Shown here one piece after another: positions 8,033-47,072 of a stretch of 64,000 nt of DNA. Made by a program: the position numbers and the translations under genes. Positions within the stretch are counted from its first letter, which is position 1. Each line of letters begins with the position of its first letter. This DNA comes from Ginglymostoma cirratum (Eukaryota). The notes below the pieces were generated by a model. It saw nothing but the letters and a program-made list of their open reading frames with translations, had not been told where the DNA came from and did not search any database. The stretch lies in NCBI GenBank assembly GCA_024137785.1, contig JAHRHZ010000063.1, positions 18,414,923 through 18,478,922 of the forward strand. Direction: 5' to 3'.

Positions 8033-11000
8033 CTAAAAATCAAGGGAATTATTCTGAAGTATTGTATCTTCTTCACTGATCAGCTCAGGTGGTACAGCAT
8101 CACACTTTACATTCTTTAACGTGTTGGGTACATCCATGAACCTTTGTAAATATTTTGAAGTGTACAGCCAGTGATGTTTCAAAATGTCTTCCAATTCATA
8201 ACTTTTGGACTGCCTTGCATTCATTTTCCTGAAACGACGAAAAAGTTTGTTGCCTGATTCATTGCCTTCACTCGCCCACGCGCCTATGGAGCCATCCCTT
8301 TCAATGATCTCGGGGACGTGAGCCAGAGTCTTGTGCAGGTAGTTAGTGATCTTCCCTTCATATCTGTGCTTAAACTCCGTACGAAGCAGTTCTGCGAATC
8401 TTTGGGAATTGCAGCTGTACTGACAAAGAAGCTCAGGGCATTCCCTGGTTGGAAACGTGGAACGCCACACTGGTTTCATCTGAAGATAAAGGTGCATGAG
8501 CTCCTTGAGGATTTCCCGCCTTCGTTCGGATGGAATTAGCTCACAGACAGCCTCGACTGTCTCTTTGGTCATTAGCTTTCGCGCAAAATTCCCGTTCAAC
8601 CTCATGACAGGCTTTAGGTTCATCTTCATTCTCAGGTGCTTGTCAAGCATCGCTTGCCACCGTTTCCTCTCTTCCTTGGATGTGCTGGGATTTTTGTACA
8701 GCTCCCCGATCTCATCCTGGAAAAGTCTGTAGAATTCCGTGGCGTTCCCAATATCACAGTGCAAGGCATCGATGGACGGCTGGGTTTCAATGAACGGCTT
8801 CGCTGAAACCCCCTTAACCCGGCCACGCAACTCATCAGCGGTTTCGCGGTACGGGTTTGAGCGCCAAATTTCGTAGCGCTCCAAGTTCTCCTGGTGGCTT
8901 CTCGTTATGGAATGAAGAACCAAGTTCTGGGAAGCCTCGTTTCGCGTGGCATCGCACAACGTGCAGACGTACATGGAGCCCGAGGCTTCAAGACCCTCCA
9001 TTTCCCGAACGAGCTTCTCATCGTATCCCGTGCCCCTAAAGATGAACTGGAAGGATCTATGCAAGTCCCCAATCTCAAGAATCAAATCGCTGCTCTTCAT
9101 AGCTTCTCGCTCAGCGATGACTGGGCCCAGGATCGCGGTCAACGTTTCGTGGTCGGATTCGTCCGCCAACATCAGGGAAAGCGGTCGGCAGCACAACTCA
9201 GAATTGGGCTTCAGCTCTTCAAAAATGACCACTTTCTCGTCGTTCTCATTCATCATACTTATACTCATGATCGTAAAGGAAAACCTCACTGCCTTTTCTG
9301 GAACGGGTGGGCCACAACCGTGTTTCTCACTGACATCGCCCATTCCATCGCAAGACTCCTTGATCACGACAGTAAACGGTCCACTCACACACTCGTCTAC
9401 GTTATGATGTTTCAAACCTTCCAGAATATCGTCTTCGAGCTCCTTCACGGCCGAAGCAAGGGCCACATCATACCTGAACCGTCTAGAAATGGTTTCCATT
9501 GGGTAATCATCTACACATTGTGTCCAGCCACTCAGTCCATCTATAATTCCCACTTCAGTGTTTGTTGAGACATTTGCCAGAGGGGGCTGCCATTCAAATG
9601 AATAATAACCTGGCAACAGTATTTTTTCTGCATTTCGAAGTGCATGCAGCGGCTGGAAGATCTGCTTCCCAGTTGTTGCTTTGACTGTCCTATACATTTT
9701 ATGATACTGACTACAACTCAGAAATGTGTTAACTCTAATGGCAAGGCAGACTGCTGGTCTCAGTTCGGATCCTTTCCCCTGCATTACAGCTTCCAGCTCA
9801 TCTGCTTGCCTGTGCTCATTTCCAGCTCTGAGTGCCAGAAGTAACAGAGTCAGACAAACGGACTTTACATCGCCATCTTCCTCTTTGTCTGCAAAAGCCT
9901 TCACCTGAAGTTTCAGGTTTCGCAGACGATGTTTTTGAGCTCTTCGGGTTAGAGAAAGCAAATGTAGTCTTGGACGGCCCCCCTTGTTGACTGCTGAGTA
10001 AGCATGCTTCATTCTCGTTTCTTTGTGGTTTTGGGCATGATTCGAATATTCACCGAGTCTCACCTCCATTTCACAGTCTGTCACTGGACACTTTAGCACA
10101 AGTGAATTGAGAACATTTATGAACGACTTAACAGGGCTTAAGAACTCTTTGGGACCACAAGGAAATCTACAAACTGGACAATACTTGCCCAGGACTGCAA
10201 TGCATTTGAGAATACACGTTCTGCAGAAAAGATGCTTGCAAGGTGATTGCACAGGGTCAGCAAGTAAGTGCTCACAAACCTGACAGGATACAGACTGGAT
10301 AAAATTGTTGGGATAATCAAGCACAAGGAGTTTTGAAGTCAGATGGAACTTCTTGCAGTTGATAATCTTTTTAGCCAATAACAGACTTGTGCTATTTACA
10401 TGATCTTTTCTTTTAATGACCCTTGGTCTGATTAGAGCATCAGTTGCTACTCTGGGTTTCTTTGTGACAGGTGGACTTTGTTTGAGACCTTTTCGTTTGC
10501 GGGCCCCACTCGAAAAGCTGCAAATGCTGCAAAGATTGGAATGTGGTTTCCATTCAATGATTGTACTGATCGGAAAGAATGCATCTTCATTCGTTGTATT
10601 GTTAATTGCCTGAATCACAATACACCAACATTTATAGCAGAAGTGAGTGGGATATCTGGCTTCTGTATCAGTCTTGACATCTATCCTAAATGTGTTACGG
10701 ATGAGTTCTGGCCAAAAACAATTGTCATATCCCATTTTCCTGAGCACCTCTTGGGTGACATCATCAACAGGACCATTAACCAGAAATTTCATATCATAAC
10801 TGTTGGTGTTAAAGGAAACTCCACAAATACGACATAGATTTTGCAATCGTAATATATGCTCTTCCAAAGATTTCGCTTCCATTTGGTTAAAGTCACAGGA
10901 CTTGTTTTTTGACGGGTTGAGTTCTAAAGGCATTTGTTCCAGGGCCTTGTCTTCAAAAGTCTTCTTGTCCAAAGGCAGTGTTTCCAATGACATAGTTCCC

Positions 11001-11179
11001 ACTGGTTTGGTGTGTGGCAATGAGGAATGCTGAAGTAGGCCATGAACTGGTGCAACCACCTCTGTCTCATAAAGCTTTTCCATTGAAACCATGACTTCCT
11101 TCTGGGTATTTTTGAAAGGCCTGGTTTCTGCATAAAGAAAGTCATCAGGTAACAGTTGCAGAGGCATCTTCACTTCCAT
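8033..11179 (-). CDS. RAG1: V(D)J recombination-activating protein 1, single coding exon, ~1048 aa from ATG at 11179 (the ORF track starts at a GTG that is the first exon codon)
   Basis: N-terminal CRICG/CYKC zinc ligands, C3HC4 RING (CQVCEH...CKHLFCRTC...CPVC), nonamer-binding GGRPR, catalytic motifs [16 protein letters not shown] and [10 protein letters not shown], zinc ligands CTLCD and HKTLAH. Polypyrimidine tract plus AG acceptor at 11193-11192, 12 nt before the ATG. Confidence 0.98.
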
Positions 11180-12264
11180 AACCACCTGCACCTGACAGAA
11201 ATAAAGAAAAATGATTCTTGATTAAAATAGGATTAGAGTTCAACACCCTCAGAAGCAAAACAGCTTGATGTTCAATGCTAAATCACAGCACTCACATTTT
11301 AATTATGTATTATTCATAAAGCTGCATTTTACAGTGTTAGGGCTGTATAACAATTGAGTTTCTGATCCAGTTCAATAAAAGACCATTGTATCTAATATCA
11401 GGGGATTAATATTAATCTAAGTGAGTGGGAACTACAGAATGGGGAAAGCTGCTCATTTGAATGTACTTAGGCAGGTGTAAGAACGGCTATCAGCTTCTAT
11501 TCCCATTGGGTAGGTTAGCTTAAAGTTGCACCTTTGATGATGAAAAACATATCCTTAGCCAAGAAAGAAATACCTTCGAAAACTACTACCGTGTGATTTT
11601 TATTTTATTCATTTAAGACTTCCACTACAGATTGTATAGGCAGAGTGAAAATGCAACTTAGAAAAACCATTGTTCAACCAGACATGAAGGTTATCTTTAA
11701 GCTTCATCATGCCTGAGTAAACAGGACAACAGCTGAACAATTGGCACTTAGGTTTTCACTCTCATAACTCAAGGACTTTTAAAAAATTGCTAAACTGCAG
11801 CTTGCCTGACAACCTGCCTCTATAGACACCTTCCTCTGCTGCCTTCTCTTCACAACTTTATCACCTGTCTTTGTATATATCTGTTTGTTAGTGTGTTCTA
11901 TCATTATTTTTCTCAGTTTTATTAGGTAATAACTCCACTCTCTTCTACTCAAGAAAACCCTGGAATTGACTTTCCTTCAATTTTAATTTGGTCAATTAAA
12001 TTTATTTAAAGTGTGACTTAGCCACGTGCTTAAAAAAACAATAAGAATATTTACAGCAAGGGAGTTCAAAGAGGGAGGCTAATCACCCCTCCTTATCCAA
12101 CCATAAAAATGCGTAGAAATACATAAAAGTGACAACAAGATAGCATACCTAACCAATCTGCACACAACTAAATAGTTTCAATCAATGTCCTCAGCTTACA
12201 GTACAAAAAAGTCTTGCCCGAAAGTAATCACTTTATCTCTGTTGCTTTATATTTGCAGTCGATG

Positions 12265-12472
12265 GTCAGTTAGCTTAGTTGGATGACACCTTTGCAATAC
12301 AGAGTGATGCCAAATATACAGGTTCAATTCCTGTCCTGATTGAGGTTGCCATGAAGATTTTTCCTTCTCAACCTCTCCCCTCACCTGAGGCACGATGACC
12401 CTCAGATTAAAACACCACTACTTGTCCCTGTCTAATGAGACACCATTCTCTGGGGCTATGGCAACTTTACTT
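12265..12472 (+). mobile_element. tRNA-derived SINE remnant in the putative RAG1 intron 1
   Basis: Box A TAGCTTAGTTGG, box B GGTTCAATTCC, (ACTTT)n tail. Confidence 0.55.
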
Positions 12473-13597
12473 TAAAGACTTTCTTCAGATGGCACCTGCA
12501 GTCAATATCAATGATCCATTACATAATAGAGGCTGCTGCTAACTTGCATATTTGACAAAAGACAGAAAATCATGGTTTGTGAAAATGAGTCTTAAAGTTT
12601 TACAAAATTAATAACTACAACTGTCAGACTTTGGTAAGACAATCTTTAGGTTAGGTTGACTCAAGTATCTAATTCCGAAGATTCACCCTTTTTTTTCATG
12701 ATAAATCATGCAAAGTATAATTTTGAGCAAAGAGAATTATACATCATTGGTTATTTGTACAGTCCTCAGGAGTAATATTTTGATATCTAATTAATGCTGT
12801 ACACAAACAAGTTTCATGTTTTCTGGAATATATGAATTTTTACTGTGAATTTATATCTCTTAAAATAGAGATAAGATTACACTTAAGGAAATACTTCCTA
12901 ACTTTAATAACAGCCCACGGTACAACATCATAGCCTGCACAGATCCTAGCTTAGGTCTTAATCAATTTATAGAATGAGGAAGGCTACGAGATAATACAGT
13001 TGCATCACCTAGCCCACAAAACTAGCACAGCACAGTTTAAGTTTCTAAAATATTTTTCATCTTATTTTATATACATAACCAAATAACACATTTTGCAAGG
13101 TCATTAATGATAATGTTTGTAAGTTGTATAACATATCTTGTTGTAATTTAACTCACTTCCCTGAGGTGTTTCCCACCATCTCTCCATACTTTCCTTAGAG
13201 TTCTTTCTAATATAATAAAACTTTAATATGTTCCGATATCCAGTGAAGTGTTTTGGAAAACAGTTGTCAGTTATGAAACTGAAAAACATTCTCTTTGATA
13301 TATATTTGTTTTTACCACATTCTAATTTAAAATACTATTATAAGATGTATCTAAATATAAAATAATAAATTGACCAAGTGATGTTTCTTGGTCCTTTTTT
13401 ACTTCCTAGCATATTTTATTCCGCATAATAAATACAAGATAGATATGACGTGACAAGAATCTTGTGTAACATTAAGTTATACATCCTAACAAGATAAACT
13501 TGCAGGAACATGACTTACAATGTTCAGAATGCCTTTCCAAACTGAATTAAATTAGTAATTGTACAAGTATTGATAGTAGTGACAATCTCTCCATTAC

Positions 13598-13800
13598 CTT
13601 TCTCTCACAGAATATGTTTTTCACAGAGGGCTCCCATCCGTTTCATACCATGAAGTAAACTCTGAAATAACAGGAACTCTCTCTACCTCTTCTACCTCTG
13701 TGACAGCTGGTGTGGTGACCTGCCTCTTTACCATTTCACTCCTAAGCCAACAGTCGCACTTAAACGCACTTTGAAACCATTTTTTTTATTGTAGGTGAGT
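13598..13800 (-). promoter_or_regulatory. RAG1: Candidate RAG1 non-coding exon 1 and proximal promoter
   Basis: Donor AAG|GTAATG at 13598/13597 in TE-free sequence ~2.4 kb upstream of the coding-exon acceptor. Adjacent E-box CAGCTG (13704-13709) abuts RUNX TGTGGT (13711-13716). RAG1 genes typically have a non-coding first exon. No transcript evidence available. Confidence 0.4.
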
Positions 13801-14088
13801 CATTTTCTTCATTATTAAATTAATTGATACTTTATGTAGCAATCTTGACTGTTATTTTATGTTATATATTATTGAGGCTGTTTAGTTTCTATTTCTACCT
13901 TGTGTTTCATATATAATGTGTATATATATAAAATCTCAATTGTTAACTTTTCTTTATTGCTAGAATTTGATGCTTCTGTTACTTAATGCTCATAGCTATT
14001 TTTGAATTAATTTCCTTCCTATCACCATTCAACTTTGGTCTCATTTACTCATGTTCTCAATCACTTACTGTCGCGGGCACGCAGAATG

Positions 14089-14102
14089 CTGCCATCTTGT
14101 GG
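14089..14102 (-). promoter_or_regulatory. Candidate CTCF site
   Basis: CCACAAGATGGCAG on the - strand, one mismatch to the CTCF core CCASYAGRKGGCRS, in a small CpG-containing patch. Confidence 0.4.
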
Positions 14103-14449
14103 ATCAGTTCAGTTTTGCAATGTATTGCAATGATTCTCAATTCAGTTATCTATTTACAGCAAATCCCATTTAAACAAAAAATATCCATCTCTACTGAGCA
14201 AATAAACGTGAATAAGTTCAAACTTAATGTTCTTTCTGCATTCATCGTTTCTCCTGATCTAGTTCTGCAATTGCTATAAATGTGTTTTCAAATTGGTCTC
14301 TCTTTTAATTTTCATGGCAAAAGCTACGCAGCACAACAAGATTTGATCTAGATTGGTTAAAAAAAATGAGAAAAATACAGGCGGTTGAAGATACTTTGAA
14401 CATTCCATTAATTCTAAAGAATATGGGGAGGAATTAAGTTCCATAACCT

Positions 14450-15660
14450 TCAGCAGAGAAGTAGTATTAAACAAAGTAATGGGGCTAAAGACAGATAAGT
14501 TCCCTGGTCCTGATGGCTTGTATCATTGGAACCTAAAAGAAGTAGCTGAAGAGATAGTGGATGCATTGTTTGTAATTTTCCAAAACTCATTGGATTTTGG
14601 AGAAATACCAGAGGACTGGAAAACTACCAATCTATTCAAAAAGGGAGGGAGGCACAATGTGGGTACATGTAGGCCGATTAGCCTAACATCCATTGTTGGG
14701 AAAGTATTGGAATCAATTATTAAAGAAGGAATAATTAAAGAAGTAATAGCAGAACATTTGGACAATTATAATCGAATCAAGAAGAGTCAGTTCTGAGGAA
14801 GGGTCACTGGACCTAAAATGTTAACTCTGTCTTTTTCTTCACAGATGCTGCCAGACCTGCTGAGCTTTTCCAGCAACTTTGTTTTTGTTCAAGAAGAGTC
14901 TTCATGAAAGAGTAATTGTGTCTAATTACAGTTATTTGAGGAAGTCTCAACCAGAGTGGATAAAGGAAAACCAGGAGATGTGCTGTATTTGGAATTCTGG
15001 AAGGTGTTCAAAAAGGTACCTCACTAAAAGTTTTGTCATAAGTTAAGAACCCACAGTGTTGGAAGTCATATATTGACATGGATAGAGAATGGCTATTGGC
15101 AATAAATAGCAAGTGGGGATAAGGGATTCTTTTTCGGGTCGGCAACCTTTGACCTGTAGGGTTCCACAGGGATCAGTGCTGGAACCGTAACTACTTACAT
15201 TATTTATTAATGACTGGGAGGGAGGAAGTGGATGTACTGCAGCCAAACTTGCAGATGACACAAAAAATCAATGGAAAAGTTGTGAAAGGGATAAAAATAG
15301 TTTACAGAGAGATAACGTAGGTCAAGCAAGTGGGCAAGGAGTTGGCAAGTGGAGTATAAAGTGGGAAAATGTTAAGTTGTTCATTTTGGAAAGGAGAATT
15401 TTTTAAAAAAGCTTATTATTTACAAGGAGAAAAGCTGCAGGAAGTAGCAACACAACGGGACTTGGGGGTACTTGTACATGAAACATAGAAAGCTAGCATA
15501 CTGGTGCAGTAGGTAATCAGAAAGGCTAATGGAATGTTAGCCCTTATTTCAGGTGGGTTGGAGAATAACAGTAAGGAAGTCTCACTGTAACTGTACATAG
15601 TGCCGTTGAGACCACATCTGCAGTACTGTGAGCAGTTTTGGTCCCATTGTTTAGAGGAAG
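14450..15660 (+). mobile_element. CR1 LINE RT fragment
   Basis: PGPDG...PEDWK...RPISLTSIVGKVLESII; decayed QGSVL and ADDTK. Confidence 0.85.
14789..14888 (+). mobile_element. Family-B short element inserted in a CR1 fragment
   Basis: 12-bp TSD TCAAGAAGAGTC (14777-14788, 14889-14900); CTGAGGA-AGGGTCACTGGACC core with GAAAC decayed. Confidence 0.8.
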
Positions 15661-15664
15661 TTTT

Positions 15665-16290
15665 CATTGTGGTTGGTTTGCTCGCCGAGCTGGTTTGTTA
15701 GTTCACAGACTTTTCATTACCTTGCTGGGTAACATCATCAGTGCAGCCTCCGATGAAGCGCTGCTGTGTTTTCCCGCCTGGTATTTAAACTCTGGGGTCC
15801 GTTGGAGTTGATTACCTCATTAGCGGTTTTTTTTCACAGTATATATAGGGTTAATTCTACGTGTTTATAGATGGCCTTCTTGGTGGAGAACCAGGCCTAT
15901 AGAAATTCCCGTGCTCATCTCTGTTTGGCCTGTCCTAAGATCCTGATGTTGTCCCAGTCGAACTGGTGGTTCTCTTTATCCGTGTGAATGGAGATAAGTG
16001 AGTATTGGTCGTGTCTTTTTGTTGCTAGTTGGTGTTCATGTATTCTTGTGGCTAGTTTCCTGTCTGTCTAATGTAATGTTTGTCACAGTCCTTGCATGAG
16101 AAAGAACAAGACCCAAGTGACACAATCTCCTCAGACAACACGCTGAAACTACTGGACCTATGCCTTACAACCCACATTATCTTTAAAGGCCAAATTTAAT
16201 GAACAAATATATAATTTGTAAACAAAGAATACTTGAACACCAACTAGCAACAAAAAGACACAACCAATACTCACTCATCTCCATTCACAA
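15665..16290 (-). mobile_element. Second Penelope-like lineage: decayed GIY-YIG fragment, terminal hammerhead-like motif and inverted RT scrap
   Basis: - strand reads CKDCDKHYI..QTDRKLATRIHEHQLATKRHD...FDWDNIRILGQ; CTGATGA TGTTACC..GGTAAT GAAA AGTC at 15708-15741; + strand LKLLDLCLTTH at ~16145. Confidence 0.75.
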
Positions 16291-16752
16291 ACGTTTAACT
16301 GAAACTAACAAAATTTGTTAGTGCATTTCACTTCGCACTGATGCTATATTTTCTGTATAAATGCAGTGAGCAGAACCAGATTCACCTGAAACCACAGTGA
16401 AGCAGATTTTCCATCAGGCAGGTTCAATAAATTTTCTTCAACCTCAATTCAGCCCTTCGTTCTTCATTTACACTTCTGTCACACATTCATTAATGTTTTC
16501 TTTGACCTCACACTTTTTGCCAGAGATTCAGACTTTTCAACTTTGAAAATATTTTCATTTCTGTCTTCCCATTCCAAAACATCATTGCTTTCTTCAGGAG
16601 ATAGTAGAAGATCTTGAGCAACTTCCCACAGATACTGACTTTGAAAACTTTAGAGAGAAAGAAGGAATAAGAATCTTAATGAATAGAATCAAAAACAAAG
16701 TTGCTGGAAAAGCTCAGCAGGTCTGGCAGCATCTGTGAAGGCAAAAAACAGA

Positions 16753-16788
16753 GTTAACGTTTCGGGTCTGGTCACCCTTCCTCAGAAC
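16753..16788 (-). ncRNA. Minimal type I hammerhead ribozyme-like motif within a family-B element (16689-16790)
   Basis: GTT-CTGAGGA-A-GGGT gaccag ACCC-GAAA-CGTT-AAC: stem I GTT/AAC, stem II GGGT/ACCC, intact core. Confidence 0.6.
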
Positions 16789-19567
16789 AGTTCATGTTCC
16801 TCCGACATAATCATGCTTGTTCAGAATGTTTGTTCCAGTCCCTTTGTGAGGTTAACTGATTCCTCTATCCAGGTTGACTTTGTGGCCTCACAATACTGCA
16901 AAATTGGGGAGGGGAGTGGGGGATTGGGGCTGGGGAGGGGTGGGGGAGGGAGGCAGGCATACCTGAACCCAAGACTGTCCTCAACCTGCCTTCGACAAAA
17001 GCACACTTTTCAGCTGGCTAAGATAACACAGTATGGAGCTGGAAGAACACAGCAGGCCAGGGAGCATCAGAGGAGCAGGGAAAACATTTCAGGTCAGGAC
17101 TGTATCTCTTTCCAGCAGGCTGACTGCTTGTCGATCCAAATCGGGAAGCGAGAACAAATTAGTTTCCTGACATGCAGAGGACTTTAAGATGTAGTTCCAC
17201 CACCATCACCATGGTTTGATGCCAGCTAATATAGAATAGATCAATCTGATGCAACATTTCTGGTCTGTATATCACATATCACATCATTTGCACCCCGAAT
17301 TATTGAAAGAACCAAGCTTTTTGTCATCTCCTGATTGTCAATTTTATATTTTTGGAACATGTGGATGGAAGGAGCAGTGGGGACATCCAGAGGAGACAGG
17401 GAGAGGCAATGCAGGGGGAGATCAGCACCCGGTGGAATTGCATCATGCCCAGAGAACTGGAGGGAGGTGGGAGGGGCAAGAGAGCCATCGGGCGAACGAA
17501 AGACTGGAGACAGAGGGGGAAAGGGGCTCCCAGCTCCCAGGCCCGATTTGTTGCCCTCCCCAAAATTCCTCTGCAAAAAAAAAAAGTTGAAAACACTCAG
17601 CAGTGAGCACTCCACAAAAAAACGTGATTTAGAATACCTTCAATTACGAAGTCTCACATTAAAATAATCGAGATAGGCAATCTCAAACATTTGGTTTAAA
17701 AAAAACTTTGTGATTGTAAAATGTTTGAAACTTTGACTAACTGATCCCTGTTTCCCCCTAGATTCTACCTGACCAATTTCAGTTTCTGTCTTCACAGGAA
17801 TAATGTGTTTTTGATGGAGTTGGGAGGAAGATGAAGTGCAGTACAAAAGGTTCAGAGATAGATTGAAAAGGTTAGACCAGTCACATATCAAGTTTTACTG
17901 ACATAAATATTTAATAATAACCTAGTTCTCTATCATATCTATTTAATTTCCTGTCACTACAGATCAGAAAGGTTACATTAGTTTTCTGCAGTTCTGCACA
18001 TTCCTATCGTCTGTTAATCCACATAGAACAGTACAATAGCAAATCACTCCAGATGCTGGAATTCTGGACTATAAATGGAAAATGTTGAAAATACTCAGCA
18101 GGTCAAGGAGCAATTGTGGAGGAAAGCTGTTAATGGTTCAGGTTGATCAGTGGAAAATCCCAGCAACGTTGTTTATAATTATCAATGCCTTCCTTGCCTA
18201 GAGATGATGCAACTCTGACTCTTCACTTCTAAATGGAAATTTCTATTTCTAGGGATAGGCTGTCTCCCAATTATCACCAGTTCTCATGGCTAACATGATT
18301 ACATTTCCTGCCACCAAGCTTTCTATAAGGACTGTATTCCCATCTCTGCCACATCCATCTGATGATACTGCTTCCACATCACTGCTTCTGATGTCATTAA
18401 TTTTCTTCAGCCAAGGATTTCTTTCTGCCCTGGTTTACAGGTCCTTGAACCTAGCCATTCCACTTTCAATGGGTACCCTGGTCCCTCCCAGGAACATAAT
18501 TCCCCCTTTTCCTCACCAACCCACACTATTTCTACTGCTTTCAGCATGATGCCGTTACCAAACAAATAGAGTGGACCATTTGGCCCTTATCACAAAGCCT
18601 TATTCCCTCTTTCTCCCCACAGCCCTTGATGCCTTTAAAAAATCTAAAAATGTCTTTCTTGAATATATTTGGTGACCTGACTTCCACAGCCTTATGTAGT
18701 AGAAAATCCCACTGGTTCACTGGCCTGTGTAAAGAATTTCTTTCTCAATCTTATATGGTCTACTCCATACCCTGAGACTTTCTCCTGGACTCCCCTGTCA
18801 AGGGGAAACATCCTCTCTACACTTAGTCTGCTCAGCCTTGTTAGAATTTTAGATCCTCTCTCATCATTCTAAACTCTAGAGAATACTGGTCCAGCCAAAC
18901 TAATCTCTCCTCACTGAATAGTCCTACCATCTCTGGTATCAAACTAGTGAACATCTTCTGCACTCTCTCAGTGATAAATATATTCTCTCAAGTAGGGAGA
19001 CCATAATTGCATGTAATACTCCATGTGTGGTCTCACTAAGGCCCTGTATAACTGCAATAAGATTTCCCTAGTTGTGAACTCAAATCCTTTTGCAATGAAG
19101 GCCAATATACCATTTGCCTTTTGAAAATTTAAAGTCCCCCAACTAATCTGGTGGGATTTGAACCTGGACATAAACCTGGCATTCTGGATTAGGAGTCTAG
19201 TGATATTAACACTACACCACCATCCTCCACATCTTCCTTCTCTCTTCCCTTTCGTGAAGAAACCATTCTCCTCCAAACATCCTGGTCTACTCTTCCATCT
19301 TTGCCAACATTCACCCCTGTCCACAGACCATTTCTCATCTAAGCGTACCAGAGCCACCTTATCTTTCACCCACTTCTAACTCAGCCCAAGAATCCTCTTT
19401 AAGGTTAATATGTGTTTTTAATGACTATTCCAGAGTTTTGGGTAGTGATTATTCCTAGCATTAGGTTCACATTAAGATCATGTCTCAATTTTCATATCAA
19501 ATCTTCTCACACCATTTTAAAAAACACCTTCTCAAAATCTTTAATCATTCATTGTTCTGTCATCTAA

Positions 19568-19890
19568 GGGGAGGCAATGGCCTAGTGCTGTTATCAGTGG
19601 ACCATTAATCCAGAAACTCAGCTAATGCTCTGGGGACAGTTTCAAATCTTACCATGGTAGATGGTAGAATGTGAATTCAATAAAAATAATCTAAAATTAT
19701 AGATCTAATGATGACCGTGAAACCATCATCAGTTGTCAGGAAAAACCCATCTAGTTCACTAATGTCCTCTAGGGAAGGAACTCTGCCATCCTTACCCAGT
19801 CAGGCCTACATGTGATTCCACACCAACACAGCAATGTGAATGACTCTTGACTGCCCTCTGGACAAGAGATGCTGGCCCAGGGGGAAAAAA
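19568..19890 (+). mobile_element. tRNA-derived SINE of a second family; further copies at ~42580-42925 (+) and ~48750-49075 (-)
   Basis: Shared GGCAATGGCCTAGTG...GGTTCAAATCC...GATGGTGGAATTTGAATTC...AGGGAAGGAAA.CTGCC motifs across copies. Confidence 0.75.
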
Positions 19891-21040
19891 TCTATCCACT
19901 TACATAAACAAATTCGTGAAGAAAGACCTATCCTTTGCAAACCGTGCTTATAATCCTTGGGCAATACTTATGATCTAAAAGATAGAAATTCCTCTTCATC
20001 TGCTTTATATGGACAGCCTCTTATTCTGGAGACTGTACCCTTTAGCCTTAGATTAGATTTTGCCATGTGGGGAAACAACTTTTCTCTGCATCTACCCTGT
20101 CAAGTCTCCTAAGAATTATATATATTTTTGAATAGATTGGTGTTTGGAAGAATGAGGGGCAATGAGTACAGTCCCAGCTTACTCAACTTCTCCTAAGTAA
20201 ATTCTTTCATACCCAACTTAGTGAACCCTCAGGACTGCCTCCAGTCACAGCATATCTCGAGACAAGGGGACCAAAACTGCTCTCAGTACCCCAACTGTGG
20301 TAAACCAGTGCATTACATAGTTTCAGCAAGACTTCCCTATTTTCATACTCCATTTGCTTTCCCTGTTACTTGAACCTGTATGTGAGCTTCTTACGATTTA
20401 TGCAGGACTCCCAAATCCCTCTGAGCTGTAGTTTTCTGCAGTGTTTTTCCATTTAAATAACATTCAGCTCCTCTATTCTTTCCCTCTAAACAAAATGACC
20501 AAGAGCCAGATCAGGTATAGGGAACAGAAACAAGGATGAGCAGGATCCACTTCACAATCAGCAAGATAAGGGACAGCTTGAGTGGGCATGAACGATGCCT
20601 GATGTATGTTTTGAGGGAAATAAGTGACAGTTGGTTATCATATGGTTGGAAATTGATCGGATTAAAAATTAGAAATTTTATGCATGATCTAAGGTTATAT
20701 AAGAGAAAAGAACATTTTACCAAAGTTCAATCTTCGACAACAATCTTGACTGGCTGTCCTTGTGTACACAAATAAGTAACCTGTACTGGAATCGTTCAGT
20801 GGCTTGTCAAGTTGAATGCCAACACCACCTCACTGTCAATCAAATGTCCAGGTTAAACATGTTCTTTCTTTGAACACAGGCAGTTATTACAGTTAAGACT
20901 GCTACAAATTATAATGTTATACAAGTAGTTTATTTACATATGTTCCACACAAATTATTAGGTTATGCAGAAAAGTCATTTTAGGCCCACTTTAAATTTGA
21001 CATCAGACAGGATTTCCCCTAAAGATTAAGGTGTTCCTAT

Positions 21041-21874: not shown

Positions 21875-22054
<180 letters not shown>

Positions 22055-33494: not shown

Positions 33495-36400
33495 AATTAA
33501 TCCACAGTTGCCAGAGGGAAAAGATGAAAATAGAATAACATGAAAGGGAACAAAAATAGTTGGGGTGTAAGACATGTGAGTCAGATTGGAAACAAAGAGG
33601 GTGATATATGTTCATAGGCAGAGGACAAGGTTAGAGTACTTGATGAATACTTCGTATCAGTGTATACTGAGGAAGAGGATGCTGACAAAATACAGGTAGA
33701 AGCAGAGTACGAAAACTGAAATGGAGGAAATAACGGAAAGGCTGTCTGTGCTTCGGGCATGTAAGTCACTTTGTTCTTGTGGGTTGCATCCAAGATTGTT
33801 AAAGAAAATGGGGAAATAGTTGATGGGTTTGCCACAATCTTTCACTCTTCTCTAGATTAGGGAGTGGAGGTGCCAGAAGACAAAGGGCAAATGTGACAAC
33901 CTTATTCAAGAAAGGGTGAAAAGGACATTTCTAATTGATACAAACTGGTGAGACATTAGTGAGGATTAAAGTTTTGAAAATCAAAAAATTAGCAAGCATT
34001 CAAGAGGCTTGAGTTAATTAAGGACAGCCATTTACAGGTTTATAGAAGGTGAATTGTGCATGTCTAATCTAACTGAATTATTTGATGACATAAAACAGAA
34101 GTTCCAAGGGAATGTGGTTTTTGTTGTAAACGTGGATTTTAAGAATGTTTGACAAACTACCACAGAGCTGGGTTAACAAAAATCAGGCTCAGGAAGAGGA
34201 AGGCCAGTGTCATCTTTGATTAAAAGAAATAAAATTACTTACAGATAGAAAACAGTGAGCCATAGTAAATTGTTGTGTTTCAGACTGGAGGGTGGATAGT
34301 AGTATTTCCTAAAGTTCTTTATTAAGGCTTTTTACATATTTACCAATTTTGCCCATGATATATTCAGAGAAGAGGCAAACAGTGAGGTGATATAAACTGC
34401 CTCAAATACTACAAAGATAGGCTCACAGAATGGGCAGAACCTGGAACTGAATGGTCTTGTTGCCAGTTTTGCAGGGTATTTATCAATGACTTAGATCAAT
34501 AGGGTATTCCAAATCTAAATTTGATGATTATGTTAGGTGGCACGGTAAGCACTGGAGACAGAAGTGGGACATTGCAAAGGGACTTTGATAGCTTTACCCA
34601 TCAAACTGTGACAAATACAGTTCTACGTAGGAAAGTGACAGGTCACCCAGAGGAATTACAATGGAGGAATCACTACTTTCCAAGTGAGTAGTGGCAGAGC
34701 ATGGAGATTCAAGTTCTCATGAATGGAATTCACAAACTGCTGGAGAGGGTTAAAAACTCATTTCAGAACCTAACGGAATATTAGACTTTACCTTAAGAAA
34801 TACAGAATGCAAATGGATGGTGATTACATTAATGTTACATAAAGCTCTTTACAAAGAATACCATTGTAAAATGGATACATTCACAATGGAGGTGGGTGCA
34901 CAATGGATTTCTCAGGATAATACCGGCATTGAGGGGACTGAGTGCTTTGCCCAGGGTTCCATTTCTGTGAGTACAGAAGATCCACAGATGATTTAAATGA
35001 AATGTGTAAAATGATTAAAGGCTTTAATGATGGGGAAAGCTCATCAAAACGTGGAATATTTAGAGCTGAAAGGAATGTGGAAATCTAAAACTCACTGAAA
35101 TGAACATTAACACTAGGTCAAGTAAAATTACAAAAATCAACAGGCATCAGATATAAGGCAGCAGGGAATCAATTGAACAAGCAGGACAATACTTCATAAT
35201 TTTTACACAAAGTCTGACATACAGCAATGAGATGGGTACCATCATAGGATCCAACTGTCTTAGCAAATCAGATGCAGTTAAAGCAGTAAGGCTTCATTTT
35301 ACTAAGCTTCACCAGGCAAACGTAGCAGGAGGCAACACTAATTGCCAAAAAATTGTAATTACCAGCTATTTTGTAGTTCTAATATTATTGTAATAATTTA
35401 TTAAATAAAACAAAGTATAACATTTAGCAACCACATGACATCCTAAATTACTTCACAATTAAACACTTAGAAAGCATTGTATTATAGGCAAATACAGAAG
35501 GCAATTTTGCAGGGTCTCACAACCAGCAATTATATTAACTCAGATACTCCACTTTAGCAATGTTGATTGAATGAGAAATAATTCAGCCATTCGAACTTTT
35601 CGGAACCATATTACACTGAATCTGAACCGGATCAGCTATAATCATACTTTGGTGACAATAGCAGGTCAGAGGCTGGGAATTCTGCAACAAATAAATCACA
35701 TCCCAACCACCCTAACGTCTGTTCATAATCTACAAGGAACAACTTAAGAGTATGATGGAATACTATCCATTGCCTGGACGAGTGCAGCTCCAACAAGCTC
35801 AACACCATCCACAACACAGTAACCCAACTGATCAGCACCCTTTCTATCATCTTCAACAATCACGCCCTCCATCATAGATGCATAGTTGGCAGTATTGTAC
35901 ACTAACTGCAAGATTCACTGCTGCACCTCACCAAGCCTCTTTTACCACTGCTTTTCAAGCCCAGAAACTTATACATAAAGTACAGGGACAGAATATATAT
36001 GGGAACCTCACTACCTGCAAGTTCCTCTTCCCTCCGACCATCCTAACTTGAGAATTATATCACCATTCCTTCCCTTTGCTGGGTCATAATCTGGAAATTC
36101 CCTTCCTAACAGCATTGTGGATACACCTGTTATTTTACAACTGGAGCAGCCCAAGATAGCTCACCGTCACCTTCTCAAGTGCATTTTGGGAATGGGCACA
36201 GGTGCTGGCCTAACCAATGATGCCCCACATTCCATGTACAAATAAATTTTTAAAATCCCTGCTCACATTCTGTAGAAAATCCAAATATTGCAATGTAGAC
36301 AAGAACATTCTGAACAATGAAAATAACAGGCTGTTGTTGCTCACATTTCTATCAGTTCAATCATGTCTGACATACACTTTCAACACCATTTTCTCATCTA

Positions 36401-36699
36401 TGTTGCACGCTCATTACTCTGAAAGATTTAATCACTCCAAGATTCACAGCTTTTTGGGAAGATGCAGAAACAGTGACTCCCACTAGTAGATGTAATTTAT
36501 TTCACAAAGTGTCAGTTTAATCTAACAAAGTATTTTGCCACATATCAATGTTCCCCTTGAGTTTTCTGAAGGTATTACAATTCTCCAGGATCAAGTCGCT
36601 GTTATTCTTGAGGCCTTGAATAGTTGACAGTCAAACCCTCACCTTCAGCCCTGATGTTTCTCATTGCAGAGATCCAAAGAAAATTCCAGGCTCTTCATT

Positions 36700-37430
36700 C
36701 TCCCTACCCCACCTCACTCCCACACCCTCCTAACAGAAGCAACTCCATTCCAGCAGCAAAGTCCACAACCAGCACACCAGCAGCACCCACAAGCCTCCGA
36801 GCAATGCCATAACCCCACACATACTCAGGGACCCCACAGACCGAAATGCTGCAGCAGCTCACTGCCTCTTAAACAGCTGCAGTATCCTCTTCTTCACATC
36901 CCTTCCCTCAGCTGCAGTGCACACTTTACCCACCAGCACCCAAAACCCCCAACAACTGCAGCACCCTCTTGTGCACCCCATCAACACTCTCTCTGCTCCC
37001 CCTCTCCACCAGCTGCAACACCCTCTTCTGCTACACCCATTGCACCCTCCTCTCTGCTCGCCCCTGCCTGCAGCTCCACCCTCTTACCCGCACTAGCTGT
37101 AGCATCCACCCCCTTCTCTCTCCCCTCCACCAGCTGCAGCACCCTGCCCTCTCTCCGCCACCCCCCAACACTAGCTGCAGGACCTGACCCAACCAGCAGC
37201 AGCCCCTTCTCCCCTCCACCTCACAAGCCGTTGCAACCCCCTCTCCCCCATCAGCTGCAACACATTCCCCCCACTAGCTGCAGCACCCTTTCCCCTCTTT
37301 CCCCCCACTCACTGGCTACAGCATCCTGTTCGCCTTGTTGTATAACCCTTTTCCCTTATACCCCATATCCGCAGCACCCTGTCTCAACAGCCCACTTCCA
37401 GTCTCTCCGCCTGCACCCGGTTTATCTGCA
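36700..37430. repeat. C-rich degenerate tandem repeat with a (C/T)AGCTGCAGCACCC core in NDUFS3 intron 1
   Basis: About ten recurring AGCTGCA/GCACCC units separated by pyrimidine runs. Confidence 0.7.
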
Positions 37431-37930
37431 GTGACAACTTCCAGGTGCCGGCTGCGCACGAAGGTCAAACAGCGGGGACATGGATTCTCCCTCCTCCCCG
37501 AATCCTTCATCCACCGCCTCCTCCCCCCTCCCCCGGAGACAAGCGGAAATCCCGGGAACCCTACACCGCCTGCTGCGCCCTCAGTCACCGCCACTCACCC
37601 ACATTCCAGAAGGTTCTCAACAATCCGGCCCGAGCCAGACCCACCAGCCTGGCCGCCATACTAACGGAACCGGAACTACCGGCACGCACGGTCCGCCCGC
37701 CAATCCTCTCCCTCCTCCCCGCCGCGGTGTTCACCTTCACTCTTCCCCCAACCCCCGTCCCCTCTCGGAAGTTGTGGTCGCTGCTCCTGATAATTAAAGG
37801 TAAAAAAAACAAAGAGAGGACGCGTTTGGAAATGCGATTCCGCTCGGTTAATAAATAGAGGTGAATTCGAGGGAATTTCTTATTCCTGGGGCCTGGTTAT
37901 TGAGCTTCTTTCTCCCTGAGCCGCAGGGCC
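37430..37930. promoter_or_regulatory. CpG-island bidirectional promoter NDUFS3/KBTBD4, with candidate KBTBD4 non-coding exon 1 ending at 37799
   Basis: CpG-dense; ETS/GABP-like CGGAA motifs (CGGAACCGGAAC ~37665, CGGAAGT ~37766); donor AAG|GTAAAA at 37800; same head-to-head arrangement as in mammals. Confidence 0.75.
37599..37659 (-). CDS. NDUFS3: NADH:ubiquinone oxidoreductase core subunit S3, exon 1 (MAARLVGLARAGLLRTFWNV, mitochondrial presequence)
   Basis: ATG at 37659 in a CpG island, donor GTGAGT at 37598, phase 1. Join 37659-37599, 30178-30116, 28469-28372, 27817-27668, 23329-23204, 21997-21878, 21208-21041 = 786 nt, 261 aa. Confidence 0.85.
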
Positions 37931-37949
37931 TGAATAATGCACTTTCCTG

Positions 37950-41098: not shown

Positions 41099-41702
41099 AT
41101 GGAGCCAAATAGTGATGCAGGAGGTGCAGCCATTGCTGGAACAACAGATGAAAGTTATTTCATGAGCTATACTTTCACAGATAGATTCCATTCTGTGCGA
41201 GTTGCCCAGAGTATTATGGATCTGTGCCTTGAAGACCGGCTGTTCGCAGATGTTACCATCTCTGTGGAAGGCAAAGAATTCCAGCTCCACCGACTTGTGC
41301 TTTCTGCTCAGAGCTGCTTCTTCCGTTCCATGTTCACCTCTAATTTAAAAGAAGCTCATAATGATGTTATAGAACTCAAAGATGTGAATGCAAGTGTTTT
41401 CCAGCTTCTTGTGGACTATATTTACCGGGGCACTGTAAAATTGAGAGTGGAGGACCTCCAGGAGACATACGAGGTGGCAGATATGTACCAGTTAACGTCA
41501 CTTTTTGAAGAATGCTCTCGGTTTCTGGCTCGGACTGTTGACATCAGGAATTGTTTACAGGTCATGTGGTTAGCAGATCAGCACAGTGACCAGAAACTGT
41601 ACACTGCAGCAAAACAATGTGCAAAAACACATCTGTCACAGCTCCACAAGACAGAAGATTTCGTGAAACTACCTGTAAGGTTGTTTACAGATATCATTAA
41701 AG
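41099..41702 (+). CDS. KBTBD4: Kelch repeat and BTB domain-containing protein 4, first coding exon (BTB and BACK)
   Basis: YFMSYTFTDRFHS...FADVTISVEGKEFQLHRLVLSAQSCFFRSMFTSNLKEA; donor G|GTATGT at 41703. Join 41099-41702, 43061-43167, 46215-47072 = 522 aa. Confidence 0.95.
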
Positions 41703-41788
41703 GTATGTGTTTTTCTGTCTTCATTTTTGGAATGAGTCTTTCTTGAGTCCAGAAGGCTGTAACATATCTAAGCAGAAGTTCAGGTACT

Positions 41789-41898
41789 AGAGATAAAAGG
41801 ATTTTCTGATGAAGGGTTTAGGCCCGAAACGTCAAGTTTTCCTGCTCCTATGATGCTGCTTGACCTGCTGTGTTCATCCAGCCCCATGCTTGTTATCT
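41789..41898 (+). mobile_element. Short Penelope terminal-repeat insertion (family A) in a KBTBD4 intron
   Basis: 16-bp TSD CAGAAGTTCAGGTACT (41773-41788, 41899-41914); begins with a short inverted copy of the element end. Confidence 0.85.
41803..41836 (+). ncRNA. Minimal type I hammerhead ribozyme-like motif (family A), sense to KBTBD4 pre-mRNA
   Basis: CTGATGA (41806-41812) A GGGTTTAGGCCC GAAA CGTC. Confidence 0.6.
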
Positions 41899-43060
41899 CA
41901 GAAGTTCAGGTACTGTTCTTCAAGTTTGCATGGGTTCACTGAGACGCTGCAGCAGGTTGAAGACAGAACTACAAGCATGCAAACAAGGTGGTGAATTAAG
42001 TTGGAAGCATTGGATGCTCAGGATTATGCTTGTGGTCTAAGTGGAGGTGTTCTGCAAAGCGGCCACCCATCTGCAGCATTCTGCTTTTCACTTGTAACTA
42101 ATGATCTTCCCAGAAGTTCCCTTATTGGAAAAAATTGGAAATGTTTTTGCTCTGCTGTAGAAAAATTATCATTAGGGGGCCAGATTAAGGAGGCTGCAAT
42201 AGAATCTGATTGATTTGTGAATCACATTGAGGTATTAAGTATAAACTGAAGTACACACATATACTGGAATTGATACATCTCCATTGAAAGTTGTTGGGAT
42301 GTTTTACACAAGTAATGACAATGTCCCTACTTCTGAGCCAGAAGTTAATGTTCCGTACTATGACTTCCAGAAACTCCAAGTTCATGTTCCATATCATGAC
42401 TTGGTGACCAATGAATGTGCACTAATAATATGGCCAAACACCTTGATTATCAATTTTCCAACAAAACCCAATGGGAGGCAGTAAGAAGGGAAAAACGAAA
42501 GAACATTGGTGCCTCTACCATCACTATCCATATCTCCAAGCTAAAATATGTGTGTAAAAGTGCAAGTTCCACAATAAGGTGAGGTAGTGGTGAGTAGTAA
42601 TGTCACTGAGCTGGTAATCCAGAAATGAGGGCTAATGCTCTGGGGACATGGGTTCAAATCCCAATCTAGCAGATGGTGAAATTTGAATTCAACAAAAATC
42701 GCCAATAAAAAGCTGATATAATGACAGCAATTGTTGTAAGTACCCATCTGAATCACCTATGTCCTTTAGGAAGTGAAATCTACCTCCTTATCTGGTCTGG
42801 CCTACGTGCGATTCCAGATCTAAAGCAATGTGCTGACTCTTAACTGCCCTTTAGGCAATTAGGCATGGCTAATAAATGCTGGCCTAGCCAGTGACACCCA
42901 TATCTCATGAACAGATTGTAAAAACTCAAACTCTGAGTAAACTGCAGCATACCATCATCAAATAAGGTTGGTAGCCAGAAAAAAAAAATCAGCTTAGTGT
43001 GGATTATATCAAAACATACTAGCAAACTAAAAAATATGCTTTTCTTTCCTGGTACTATAG

Positions 43061-43167
43061 ATGGTGTTCCTAGCTCTCAGAAACCTGCCAAAGCCATAGA
43101 AACATGGATAGATCACAACAAGGAAGAGCGAGCACAGTACTCTGAGAACCTGACATCCAGTTTAAAG
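43061..43167 (+). CDS. KBTBD4: KBTBD4 second coding exon (DGVPSSQKPAKAIETWIDHNKEER...SLK)
   Basis: tatag acceptor and AAG|GTATGT donor; phase 1 to 0 fits the flanking exons. Confidence 0.92.
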
Positions 43168-44572
43168 GTATGTTACCTCAAAACTAGACCACGCAAGTAC
43201 CTTCTTTCCCCAATACAAGTTGAAACTAATATTTCCTGTGAGTGTGAAACGGAAGAATTCCTGCAGGATAGTGCTAATTATAGAGTTTGGGGCTTGGCTT
43301 TTACCTTTTCTGGAAACACATTATTCCAAACTTTTCCAAATAGTGAGAAGGATTATCAGATAAGTGACGAATGTTGGTTTAGTGGTAGAGTTCTAAATAA
43401 TGCAACACCCCTCCATGGAAAAGTCCCTTTTGAGCTTCAGGACATCATGGCAGGACTCTTCAGAGAAGCATCCTCAGCTCAACCATCTGCAACTCCTCCA
43501 TCAGAAGGATTGGGATTGTCTACTGACAGTTTCAGTATTCAGTCTTGATGGCATCTTCAATAATGGAACTGTCCATGTTACATTCCAGTAAGGACTGGAT
43601 AATATCCAAGTTTGAGCAGTTAAGTGACATGTTACATGTATGCCAGATAGAAGTAGTCCATGACTATCTTGAACAAGAGTGCCCAATCATCTCCCCTTGT
43701 CTTTCAAGATCCACAGCCATTGACAGATTTCCCTGTAATGAGGGCAATTACCATTGACCAGAAGTTAACTGGTCCTGCAGACCAGCACAATGGCTATAAG
43801 GGCAAATCAGAGTTTGAATACCCTCAACGACTCTCAATATGCAACCTTCCCAGAAGGACAAAGGAAATGTTCAAGGATAGACTGAAAGTTTCCTTGAAGC
43901 ATAGCCGAATGGATATTAATGATGCAAAGAAGCTTGCTACCAATCATTCAAACTAGCAACTTGTTCATCTAGCTGCAATATGCTTTGAGACGAAAGACAA
44001 CAGTAGCAGAGAAGTTAAAAGGAAGCCAGTCCTCCACTCTGGATCTCACTACTTCATGAGACATCCTACTCCATCTGCTTAACGATCTATGCGTCATGAA
44101 TCAGCCTGTTCAGTCATATTCAGTCAGGCAGAAATTTGGAGGCCCATGGCAGAACATGCCATGAATAGACATCATTTTGAATCAATGGACAGCTGACAAT
44201 GGCAGCCCCATGATGAGTAGCTCATCCCCTGTTTCTCAAAATTTCTCCATTGAAAGACTGAATTAGAAATATGATGGAATACTTACAGTTGCTTAGATAG
44301 GCACAACTAAGCAATGCCTAATCCAGAACGCCTCTAAAAGATTGATATTCATATTGAACTTCACGCTGTTTTTTTCACCAATCCACAGTAACTGTAGTTG
44401 ACAACATTATTTTGACAAAAACTCGCTCTCCCTAATCACCCCTACAATTCAGGGCATGAAAGCAATGTCACAAGAAAACTCTTACCTACAAATGCAATAG
44501 ACCAGCTTGATTTGACTTTTATTTGCTGTCCCTGTTGCTTCTGATTGGGTATCCTAGAAGTTTCCATCTGGA

Positions 44573-45125
44573 TAACAAGCATGGGGCTGGATGAACACAG
44601 CAGGTCAAGCAGCATCNNNNNNNNNNNNNNNNNNNNNNNNNNNNNNNNNNNNNNNNNNNNNNNNNNNNNNNNNNNNNNNNNNNNNNNNNNNNNNNNNNNN
44701 NNNNNNNNNNNNNNNNNNNNNNNNNNNNNNNNNNNNNNNNNNNNNNNNNNNNNNNNNNNNNNNNNNNNNNNNNNNNNNNNNNNNNNNNNNNNNNNNNNNN
44801 NNNNNNNNNNNNNNNNNNNNNNNNNNNNNNNNNNNNNNNNNNNNNNNNNNNNNNNNNNNNNNNNNNNNNNNNNNNNNNNNNNNNNNNNNNNNNNNNNNNN
44901 NNNNNNNNNNNNNNNNNNNNNNNNNNNNNNNNNNNNNNNNNNNNNNNNNNNNNNNNNNNNNNNNNNNNNNNNNNNNNNNNNNNNNNNNNNNNNNNNNNNN
45001 NNNNNNNNNNNNNNNNCAGCAGGTCAAGCAGCTCCTATGATGCTGCTTGACCTGCTGTGTTCATCCAGCCCCATGCTTGTTATCTCGGATTCTCCAGCAT
45101 CTGCAGTACCTTTTATCTCTGATAC
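44573..45125. mobile_element. Penelope family-A inverted pair spanning a 400-N gap
   Basis: Inverted copies either side of gap 44617-45016; 14-bp TSD AGTTTCCATCTGGA (44559-44572, 45126-45139). Confidence 0.8.
44617..45016. other. Assembly gap (400 N)
   Basis: N run. Confidence 1.
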
Positions 45126-46214
45126 AGTTTCCATCTGGAACCATTTTAGGAGCTGCATCATCACAACTTTGGGATGGGCTAGAAATTCAATCTTACAATG
45201 TTGGCTGTGTCTTGAGTACCAATTTTAAAAATCGCAGTTTAACGTTTGAAAGCAAAATCATTGAATGTTATTTTTCCACTCAGACTATATCTATTTTTAT
45301 GAAGTTCACTTATCAAAAGCTTATTAAAGATCATGATCTGAGTAAACTGTGGACCAGTGAAGCAGGATTTAATATACTTACAGTAAAACCGAGGCAGAAG
45401 CCCCCTTAACCATCTATTACGGTACAGATTCATTGAGTGGGGTGTATTGTTTGGTAAGTGGTGATACCAGTATAAGCTGCCAAAGTAGGAGTTTATCTGA
45501 TGGTCCTCTAAAAGTTAAGGTTTAATCAGAATCAAATGTAATTTGAAACTTAGTGATTTAACGAGAGGCCATTTTTGTTAGGCATCACTGCAATAATCAC
45601 CAAATGCATTGGTCTGATTGTTCCAAGTTTAATATCTAATCCTTCCTTTATTTTCCTGGCAAGACCAGAAAAGATGATCTTGCCACAGTTTGAAAATGCA
45701 AATAAATTTAGCCAGTATTCATCTTTTCTAGGATTAAGTTTTAATTTTGTAATACATTTTAATTACTAACCAAAACTGGTCTTAGCAAAAATTGTAGGTA
45801 ATTCACAATAGATTTTCAAACAATACATTATCGCTTGATATTTTAAAGTGGATTGTACAACTGTTTTGCTGTGAGAGTTATACAATGCAATGCAACACAA
45901 CACAGCACAGGAACAGGCCCTTCGACCCACCAAATTACTGGTTTGCCAGTATGTATTCTCCGCAGAAACTGATCGAAAGAAGACCTTTTTGATTTACTCT
46001 AAAGTCAGACCAAAAGTACTTTTTGTGATAACAGGGAAATGATTCAACAAGTCATAGTGAGCACTTAAGTCATCCTAGCAAAGGAAGATAGTCTTTTGGA
46101 ATCCTCCCATTAACTAAATACCTGTGCAGCTTGTATTAATTTTAAGATTATTATCTAAAGATTAAACTGTACCATTGTTGTTTATCAGGTTTGGAATTTT
46201 TTTGTCTCATACAG

Positions 46215-47072
46215 GAAATTGGCGAAATTGTTCATATTTATCTGATTGGAAAAGAAGACACTCGGACTCACTCACTTGCAGTTTCTTTACATTGTGATGA
46301 TGACGCCATCAGTGTCAGTGGACAAAATAGATTGCGTCAGCAGATTACGGCTGCGTGCAAGCATGGCAGTGACTTATATGTTGTGGGTGGCCCCATTCCA
46401 CGCCGAATGTGGAAGTGTAATATGGAGACAATGGACTGGGAACAGTGTGCATCACTGCCAAGAGATCGGCTTCAGCACACACTGGTATCTGTGCCAAGTG
46501 AGGATGCCATTTATTCACTCGGTGGAAAAACTCTACAGGATACGCTATCCAGCGCTGTCATTTATTATGTGGTCCGTGATAATGTATGGATTGAAACCAA
46601 TCAGCTGGACACTGCAGTATCTTGCGCTGCTGGTGTTAACCTGAATGGAACTATTTATCTTCTGGGTGGGGAGGAGAATGACCTGGATTTCTTTACCAAA
46701 CCATCACGTCTCATCCAATGTTTTGACACGCACTCCAGAACGTGCCAATTAAAATCATACCTTCTCCCCTTTGCAGGCCGTATGCATGCTGCTATTCACA
46801 AGGACCTGATTTTTATTGTAGCTGAGGGGGATTCTTTGGTTTGTTATAATCCTTTGCTCGACAGCTTCACCAGACTGCGTTTCCCAGAGGTATGGAGTCG
46901 TGTGCCTTCCCTCTGGAAGATTGCAAGTTGCAATGGATGTATCTATGTTTTCAGAGATAAGTGCAAAAAGGGTGATGCCAATACATTAAAACTGAACCCA
47001 GCCACATCTGTGGTGTCAGTAATTAGTGGAATTGAGATACTGCTGACGAATTGGCAATTTGTTTTGGCATGA
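46215..47072 (+). CDS. KBTBD4: KBTBD4 last exon (kelch propeller)
   Basis: EIG...YVVGGPIPRRMWKC...LLTNWQFVLA*; acceptor acag at 46214; AATAAA at 47606. Confidence 0.96.
   Translation, partial: EIGEIVHIYLIGKEDTRTHSLAVSLHCDDDAISVSGQNRLRQQITAACKHGSDLYVVGGPIPRRMWKCNMETMDWEQCASLPRDRLQHTLVSVPSEDAIYSLGGKTLQDTLSSAVIYYVVRDNVWIETNQLDTAVSCAAGVNLNGTIYLLGGEENDLDFFTKPSRLIQCFDTHSRTCQLKSYLLPFAGRMHAAIHKDLIFIVAEGDSLVCYNPLLDSFTRLRFPEVWSRVPSLWKIASCNGCIYVFRDKCKKGDANTLKLNPATSVVSVISGIEILLTNWQFVLA

Follow-up and report, generated by a model that had tools for sequence, protein, structure and literature searches.

NDUFS3 beside RAG1 in the nurse shark and the likely late origin of the TRAF6-RAG1 junction

Which gene lay 5' of RAG1 before the jawed vertebrates diversified? 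The question is raised by a 64,000-nucleotide stretch (the window) of contig JAHRHZ010000063.1 (C63), part of the 4.36-Gb nurse shark (Ginglymostoma cirratum) genome, in which that place is held by NDUFS3 and not, as in the textbook layout, by TRAF6. We read this as a single, ordinary RAG1-RAG2-IFTAP locus with an NDUFS3 flank that cartilaginous fishes likely have in common and that is likely ancestral, the TRAF6-RAG1 junction having formed later, and we put the probability of this reading at roughly 0.6. The arrangement itself is real, neither an artefact nor the peculiarity of one species.

A first-pass annotation of the window had placed RAG1 less than 10 kb behind NDUFS3, on the same strand, with no gap and no TRAF6 exons between them. 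Each part of this is borne out. From the NDUFS3 stop to the RAG1 ATG there are 9861 bases with 0 N, and tblastn with whale shark TRAF6 gave no match in that interval, its sole match in the window being the RING finger of RAG1.

The RAG1 locus and its flanks

The window, in its own coordinates, holds the following features:

8033..11189, minus strand: RAG1 coding exon, one open frame of 1047 amino acids, ATG at 11179, stop at 8033-8035
11190..13595, minus strand: RAG1 intron 1, GT-AG, 2406 bases, the joint 11189/13596 being present in contig 1 of run X1 and the splice sites read
13596..13792 or further, minus strand: RAG1 non-coding exon 1, matched without difference by the run X1 contig, 5' end not fixed
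13793..21040, no strand assigned: intergenic stretch between NDUFS3 and RAG1, including the NDUFS3 3' untranslated region, gap-free, with interspersed repeats and without a TRAF6 exon
21041..37659, minus strand: NDUFS3, seven coding exons (ends approximate) at 37659-37597, 30182-30117, 28467-28366, 27817-27668, 23329-23204, 21997-21878 and 21208-21041, stop at 21041
41099..47072, plus strand: KBTBD4, coding exons 41099-41703, about 43060-43168 and 46215-47072, with BTB, BACK and Kelch domains
54312..61708, minus strand: last two coding exons of PTPMT1, near 54315 and 61512, Pfam DSPc

The RAG1 protein matches Pfam RAG1 at 1233 bits, has RING and zinc finger matches besides, and is 97% identical to RAG1 of the whale shark, Rhincodon typus. 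In alignment to mouse RAG1 the catalytic residues are kept (shark D611, D720 and E974 for mouse D600, D708 and E962), as is the gatekeeper arginine, R860 aligning to mouse R848, a residue whose meaning we take from the available part of PMC10629977. The gene is single copy, with one match in the whole assembly, as there is for RAG2, all such counts being lower bounds.

Non-coding exon 1 shortens the gap from the NDUFS3 stop to RAG1 to about 7.2 kb, and the RAG1 promoter would lie just above this exon. Run X1 was taken as RNA by guess, and its contigs cannot show a transcription start. Upstream of the mapped exon, at 14065-14100 on the minus strand, an ATG opens a short stretch that runs into a strong splice donor, possibly an alternative RAG1 first exon, without support in the runs. 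Two raw RNA runs hold almost no RAG1 reads, too few to judge read-through from NDUFS3; 5 of 15 reads start at 20985, inside the intergenic stretch. DNA contigs of two related organisms cover most of the NDUFS3-RAG1 interval, none spanning all of it.

On C63 the gene order is API5, IFTAP, RAG2, RAG1, NDUFS3, KBTBD4, PTPMT1, ABTB2, NAT10. RAG2 is an intact open frame (C63:18398098-18399657), convergent with RAG1 and about 23 kb past the RAG1 stop. The IFTAP exons come next (C63:18356430-18381488, minus strand), followed 4.6 Mb beyond by API5, in an orientation that agrees with the human one. Some 2.9 kb upstream of the RAG2 coding exon, at about 18,395,120-18,395,205 of C63, an inverted pair of ZNF143-type sites presumably marks the IFTAP/NWC promoter; the plus-strand site fully fits the consensus in the accessible part of PMC3439442. 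Since RAG2, IFTAP and API5 are in their usual places, RAG did not move, and the relocated RAG1 copy that the first-pass annotation had entertained is dismissed by these neighbours and by the single RAG1 match. Only the 5' flank of RAG1 departs from the mammalian layout.

CRY2 was considered as a gene beyond IFTAP and rejected: no gene was recognised within 140 kb past IFTAP, and C63 has no CRY match, beside ABTB2 or elsewhere. CRY2 may be lost or unassembled in the nurse shark. Just past the last IFTAP exon stands a 510-residue low-complexity open frame (L071:3475-5004, minus) with no Pfam match, probably a retroelement remnant.

On the other side, the NDUFS3 exons are each 86-100% identical to Rhincodon NDUFS3 (tblastn), Pfam Complex1_30kDa is present, and three introns are confirmed by transcript contigs and reads. 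KBTBD4 stands head to head with NDUFS3; the names KBTBD4 and PTPMT1 are our own assignments from sequence and neighbourhood. The order NDUFS3-KBTBD4-PTPMT1, proposed at first pass for positions 8033..47072, is real, except that PTPMT1 falls outside those positions, its first exon lying 1.5 kb past the window end. Two 400-N gaps interrupt an NDUFS3 intron and a KBTBD4 intron, and none the RAG1 junction. NDUFS3 intron 1 also houses, beside a 400-N gap, a Penelope-type element (31274-32118, minus) with a weak GIY-YIG match, and a PTPMT1 intron holds a broken CR1-type long interspersed nuclear element (56273-60203, minus) with endonuclease and reverse transcriptase pieces.

Spread of the arrangement and the place of TRAF6

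Annotation pipelines often number neighbouring genes consecutively, and we used the closeness of protein accession numbers as a proxy for adjacency, not a map; as a positive control, RAG1 and TRAF6 are consecutive in coelacanth and Ascaphus. In 8 of 19 shark and ray annotations the accession numbers of RAG1 and NDUFS3 differ by at most 5, representing 7 of 17 species from both sharks and batoids (Rhincodon, Chiloscyllium punctatum, Heterodontus, Scyliorhinus torazame twice, Mobula birostris, Amblyraja and Leucoraja). With 500-2000 accessions per chromosome assumed, the chance of 7 in 17 species is below 1e-7, a figure that rejects only coincidence, the species being related. RAG1 and TRAF6 come that close in 0 of 10 comparable elasmobranch annotations (minimum distance 81). 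The 2014 chimaera annotation gives NDUFS3 as XP_007885830 and TRAF6 as XP_007903019. RAG2 is XP_007885835 in the available part of bioRxiv 10.1101/100735, where it is called shark RAG2 beside the RAG1 number, and RAG1 is XP_007886047 in that of PMC12730594. Chimaera RAG2 is 5 accessions from NDUFS3 and TRAF6 about 17,000.

By this proxy neither rays nor the chimaera show the TRAF6-RAG1 adjacency that the first-pass annotation had named as speaking against an ancestral NDUFS3 flank. The close RAG1 and NDUFS3 numbers in several species make a misjoin or a one-species change very unlikely, and the flank is likely common to all cartilaginous fishes. Among ray-finned fishes, RAG1 and NDUFS3 are 206-226 accessions apart on three sturgeon chromosomes, and the Acipenser sinensis scaffolds are short and multi-copy; in the teleosts Denticeps, Salvelinus and Carassius RAG1 and TRAF6 are on different contigs (3 of 3), a result made unusable by their extra duplication.

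Where, then, is TRAF6? As proposed at first pass, it was sought in this assembly together with RAG2 and IFTAP, and while these two sit beside RAG1, TRAF6 is 32.7 Mb off on the same contig (51.10-51.13 Mb, plus strand; 32,675,651 bases from ATG to ATG), not head to head with RAG1. Its 5' side carries ARHGAP1 (minus) and then the 3' end of PHF21A (plus), and its 3' side PRR5L (minus). Contig C21 holds a PHF21 paralogue on the plus strand at 40.60 Mb and, both on the minus strand, an ARHGAP1-like gene (40.64-40.67 Mb) and PRR5 (from 40.77 Mb). This PHF21B-ARHGAP8-PRR5 set is homologous exon for exon to the C63 block, in the same order and orientation, with paralogous exons 44-78% identical; a search of C21 turned up no copy of TRAF6 between these genes. 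ABTB and CHST form further C63/C21 paralogue pairs. The names PRR5L, PRR5, ARHGAP8 and PHF21B are presumed from sequence and neighbourhood, with domain matches supporting them in part. Searches of the genome for the TRAF6_Z2, HbrB and ATG13 families gave no match and are uninformative as to absence.

We take PHF21B to lie beside PRR5-ARHGAP8 in human (22q13), and human presumably retains PRR5L-TRAF6. Because human has both paralogues, and given the exon identities, the duplication would have come before the shark-human split. The available part of Dataset S2 of PMC13012124 also carries a human PRR5-ARHGAP8 read-through name. The PRR5L-TRAF6-ARHGAP1-PHF21A block would thus predate the vertebrate genome duplication that made the C63/C21 pair. 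With the same order and orientation kept on C21, the C63 block appears to be the older state, and it is very likely that coelacanth and tetrapods show a derived TRAF6-RAG1 junction, TRAF6 having been split from ARHGAP1 on the bony vertebrate side.

Which neighbour came first

Economy of events points to NDUFS3 as the ancestral jawed-vertebrate flank, which we consider probable; the choice of NDUFS3, rather than a third gene, as the earlier neighbour of RAG1 is the least certain step. Two or more intrachromosomal rearrangements in the bony vertebrate line would have parted TRAF6 from ARHGAP1 and RAG1 from NDUFS3, and the same rearrangements would have placed TRAF6 head to head with RAG1. Orientation rules out a single inversion: RAG1, on the minus strand, and TRAF6, on the plus strand, point towards each other over the 32.7 Mb between them, so one inversion would not join them and at least two events are needed. 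The first-pass proposal of an ancestral neighbourhood later broken by an inversion in bony vertebrates survives in its TRAF6 half, through the paralogous block on C21, and not in its mechanism, as gene orientation gives no support to a single step from shark to human order. It is tempting to speculate, and we do so tentatively, that the RAG transposon inserted between the NDUFS3 3' end and the bidirectional IFTAP promoter, that cartilaginous fishes keep both edges of the insertion from which V(D)J recombination arose, and that the TRAF6 side and upstream RAG1 regulatory DNA were acquired later in bony vertebrates.

Several observations weigh against an ancestral NDUFS3 flank. The other 11 of 19 annotations show RAG1-NDUFS3 gaps of 32-5305 accessions; in six of these the RAG1 model is shortened and was probably numbered separately, in an old assembly the two genes are on separate scaffolds, and the four with full-length models have no such explanation, wide gaps with full-length models occurring in Heptranchias (511), Hemitrygon (432) and Rhinoraja (499). 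Chimaera RAG1 is 217 accessions from NDUFS3. The TRAF6-RAG1 pair is seen in sarcopterygians only, with no ray-finned pair and no jawless fish placed, and in Hymenochirus boettgeri, unlike the other frogs compared, RAG1 and TRAF6 are on different contigs. Beyond PTPMT1 on C63 come ABTB2 and then NAT10, and this PTPMT1-ABTB2 end is not the pre-duplication state, the ABTB paralogues on C21 (12.24-12.27 Mb) and C271 (0.56-0.73 Mb) standing head to head with CRY. Finally, CAT, CHST1, NUP160, PSMC3 and MTCH2 are in non-human orders on C63, and the NDUFS3 block could have moved in sharks. The names ABTB2, MTCH2, PSMC3 and CHST1 are assigned from sequence and neighbourhood.

In a rival explanation both flanks are derived, TRAF6 having joined RAG1 in bony vertebrates and NDUFS3-KBTBD4-PTPMT1 having entered between RAG1 and ABTB2 in the cartilaginous stem, so that the original neighbour was a third gene. 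We consider it unlikely, although it is the strongest of the alternatives. ABTB pairs with CRY and not with PTPMT1 on two other contigs, but loss of single-copy housekeeping genes from paralogons would also leave CRY-ABTB pairs. In human the NDUFS3 block is flanked by PSMC3, MTCH2 and AGBL2; genes like these cluster on C63 at 62.0-62.1 Mb with no NDUFS3 block among them, a state that fits its removal as well as its later insertion. The many shark-human order differences mark C63 as an often shuffled chromosome. The explanation costs one event more than an ancestral NDUFS3 flank and, more weakly, is opposed by amphioxus gene numbers, in which PTPMT1 falls close to NAT10 and CAPRIN1 and at a distance from CELF and RAPSN.

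On C63, CAT occupies 50.57-50.60 Mb; the adjoining 43 kb on its 5' side showed no gene, so the reciprocal junction was not recovered there. A CD59-like exon lies beyond NUP160, the remainder of that walk being unreadable. RAPSN is on a 228-kb unplaced contig, CELF1 was not located in the assembly, and FAM180 has its matches on other contigs. Opposite and just inside the MTCH2-like gene, at C63 62.049 Mb (L217:9150-9755, plus), is a single-frame gene resembling secreted phospholipase A2.

Far less probable is a TRAF6-RAG1 adjacency that is itself ancestral, with the region rearranged in cartilaginous fishes. The consecutive numbers in coelacanth and a frog fit it, as does the adjacency that we assume for mammals, but it asks that sharks restored the very PRR5-ARHGAP-PHF21 order and orientation found on C21, which largely refutes it. 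A misjoin in the assembly, or a second RAG1 copy that was relocated, is barely credible: no contig from four DNA runs spans the whole 11-21 kb stretch, all breaking at repeats, and the 2018 C. punctatum assembly has RAG1 and NDUFS3 on separate scaffolds, but RAG1 has its one match and a gap-free junction, and accessions are consecutive in independent assemblies, among them the later one of C. punctatum and a catshark scaffold of 260 kb.

Amphioxus, suggested at first pass as a marker of the empty insertion site, is unlikely to serve: PTPMT1 lies among unrelated genes and the local order is not kept. In the part of the amphioxus microsynteny table available, PTPMT1 shares a block with CCDC186, TDRD1 and ZDHHC16 in five species, and none of the listed blocks contains NDUFS3, IFTAP/C11orf74 or TRAF6; the gene numbers of PRR5 and ARHGAP1/8 there lie far apart. 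In hagfish, with closeness of gene numbers again as proxy, those near PTPMT1, PRR5 and ARHGAP belong to unrelated genes.

Studies of where RAG was domesticated have relied on the IFTAP side and the mammalian gene order. Should the TRAF6-RAG1 junction be derived, an empty site is to be sought where IFTAP stands beside NDUFS3, not beside TRAF6, and RAG1 was not linked to an innate-immunity adaptor from the start. The solid new point is that this textbook neighbourhood is very likely derived; that NDUFS3 marks the opposite edge of the RAG landing site is plausible. The findings bring in no new protein or mechanism. The regulatory region 5' of shark RAG1 is confined to some 7 kb, a small interval behind a housekeeping gene, and amniote RAG enhancers are described as not recognisable in fishes in the available part of a review (PMC8199221). 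We found no published description of the NDUFS3-RAG1 arrangement in a search that left most subscription papers, and figures, outside its coverage, so it may be in print; the accessible parts of PMC10629977, PMC3439442, PMC8355894, PMC13012124, PMC8199221, PMC1845163 and PMC4939155 make no mention of the shark RAG1 5' flank.

Comparison with known systems

With the mammalian TRAF6-RAG1-RAG2-IFTAP (NWC) locus the shark shares convergent RAG1 and RAG2 about 23 kb apart, a non-coding RAG1 first exon, IFTAP transcribed away from RAG2 with inverted ZNF143-type sites upstream, and API5 further out. It differs in the 5' neighbour of RAG1, which is the 3' end of NDUFS3 in tandem and not a head-to-head TRAF6. 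The PRR5-ARHGAP8-PHF21B block of human 22q13 and C21 has the order and orientation of PRR5L-(TRAF6)-ARHGAP1-PHF21A on C63, with no TRAF6 copy seen among the C21 genes. The closest paper, Sniezewski et al. 2018, reportedly identifies the IFTAP/NWC promoter as the landing site of the RAG transposon. The conserved IFTAP side of the shark is what that hypothesis, as set out in the available part of PMC3439442, expects; the treatment there deals with the RAG2/IFTAP side, whereas the shark finding concerns the opposite edge of the presumed insertion.

ProtoRAG and RAGL-A transposons have in common with the shark locus the convergent RAG1-RAG2 pair and the catalytic residues. Unlike them, shark RAG is single copy, carries arginine at the position of mouse 848, and is without signal-like terminal repeats, a narrow heptamer-spacer-nonamer pattern finding no match in the window or in 30 kb on the RAG2 side. 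Judged from these features, shark RAG is domesticated, not mobile.

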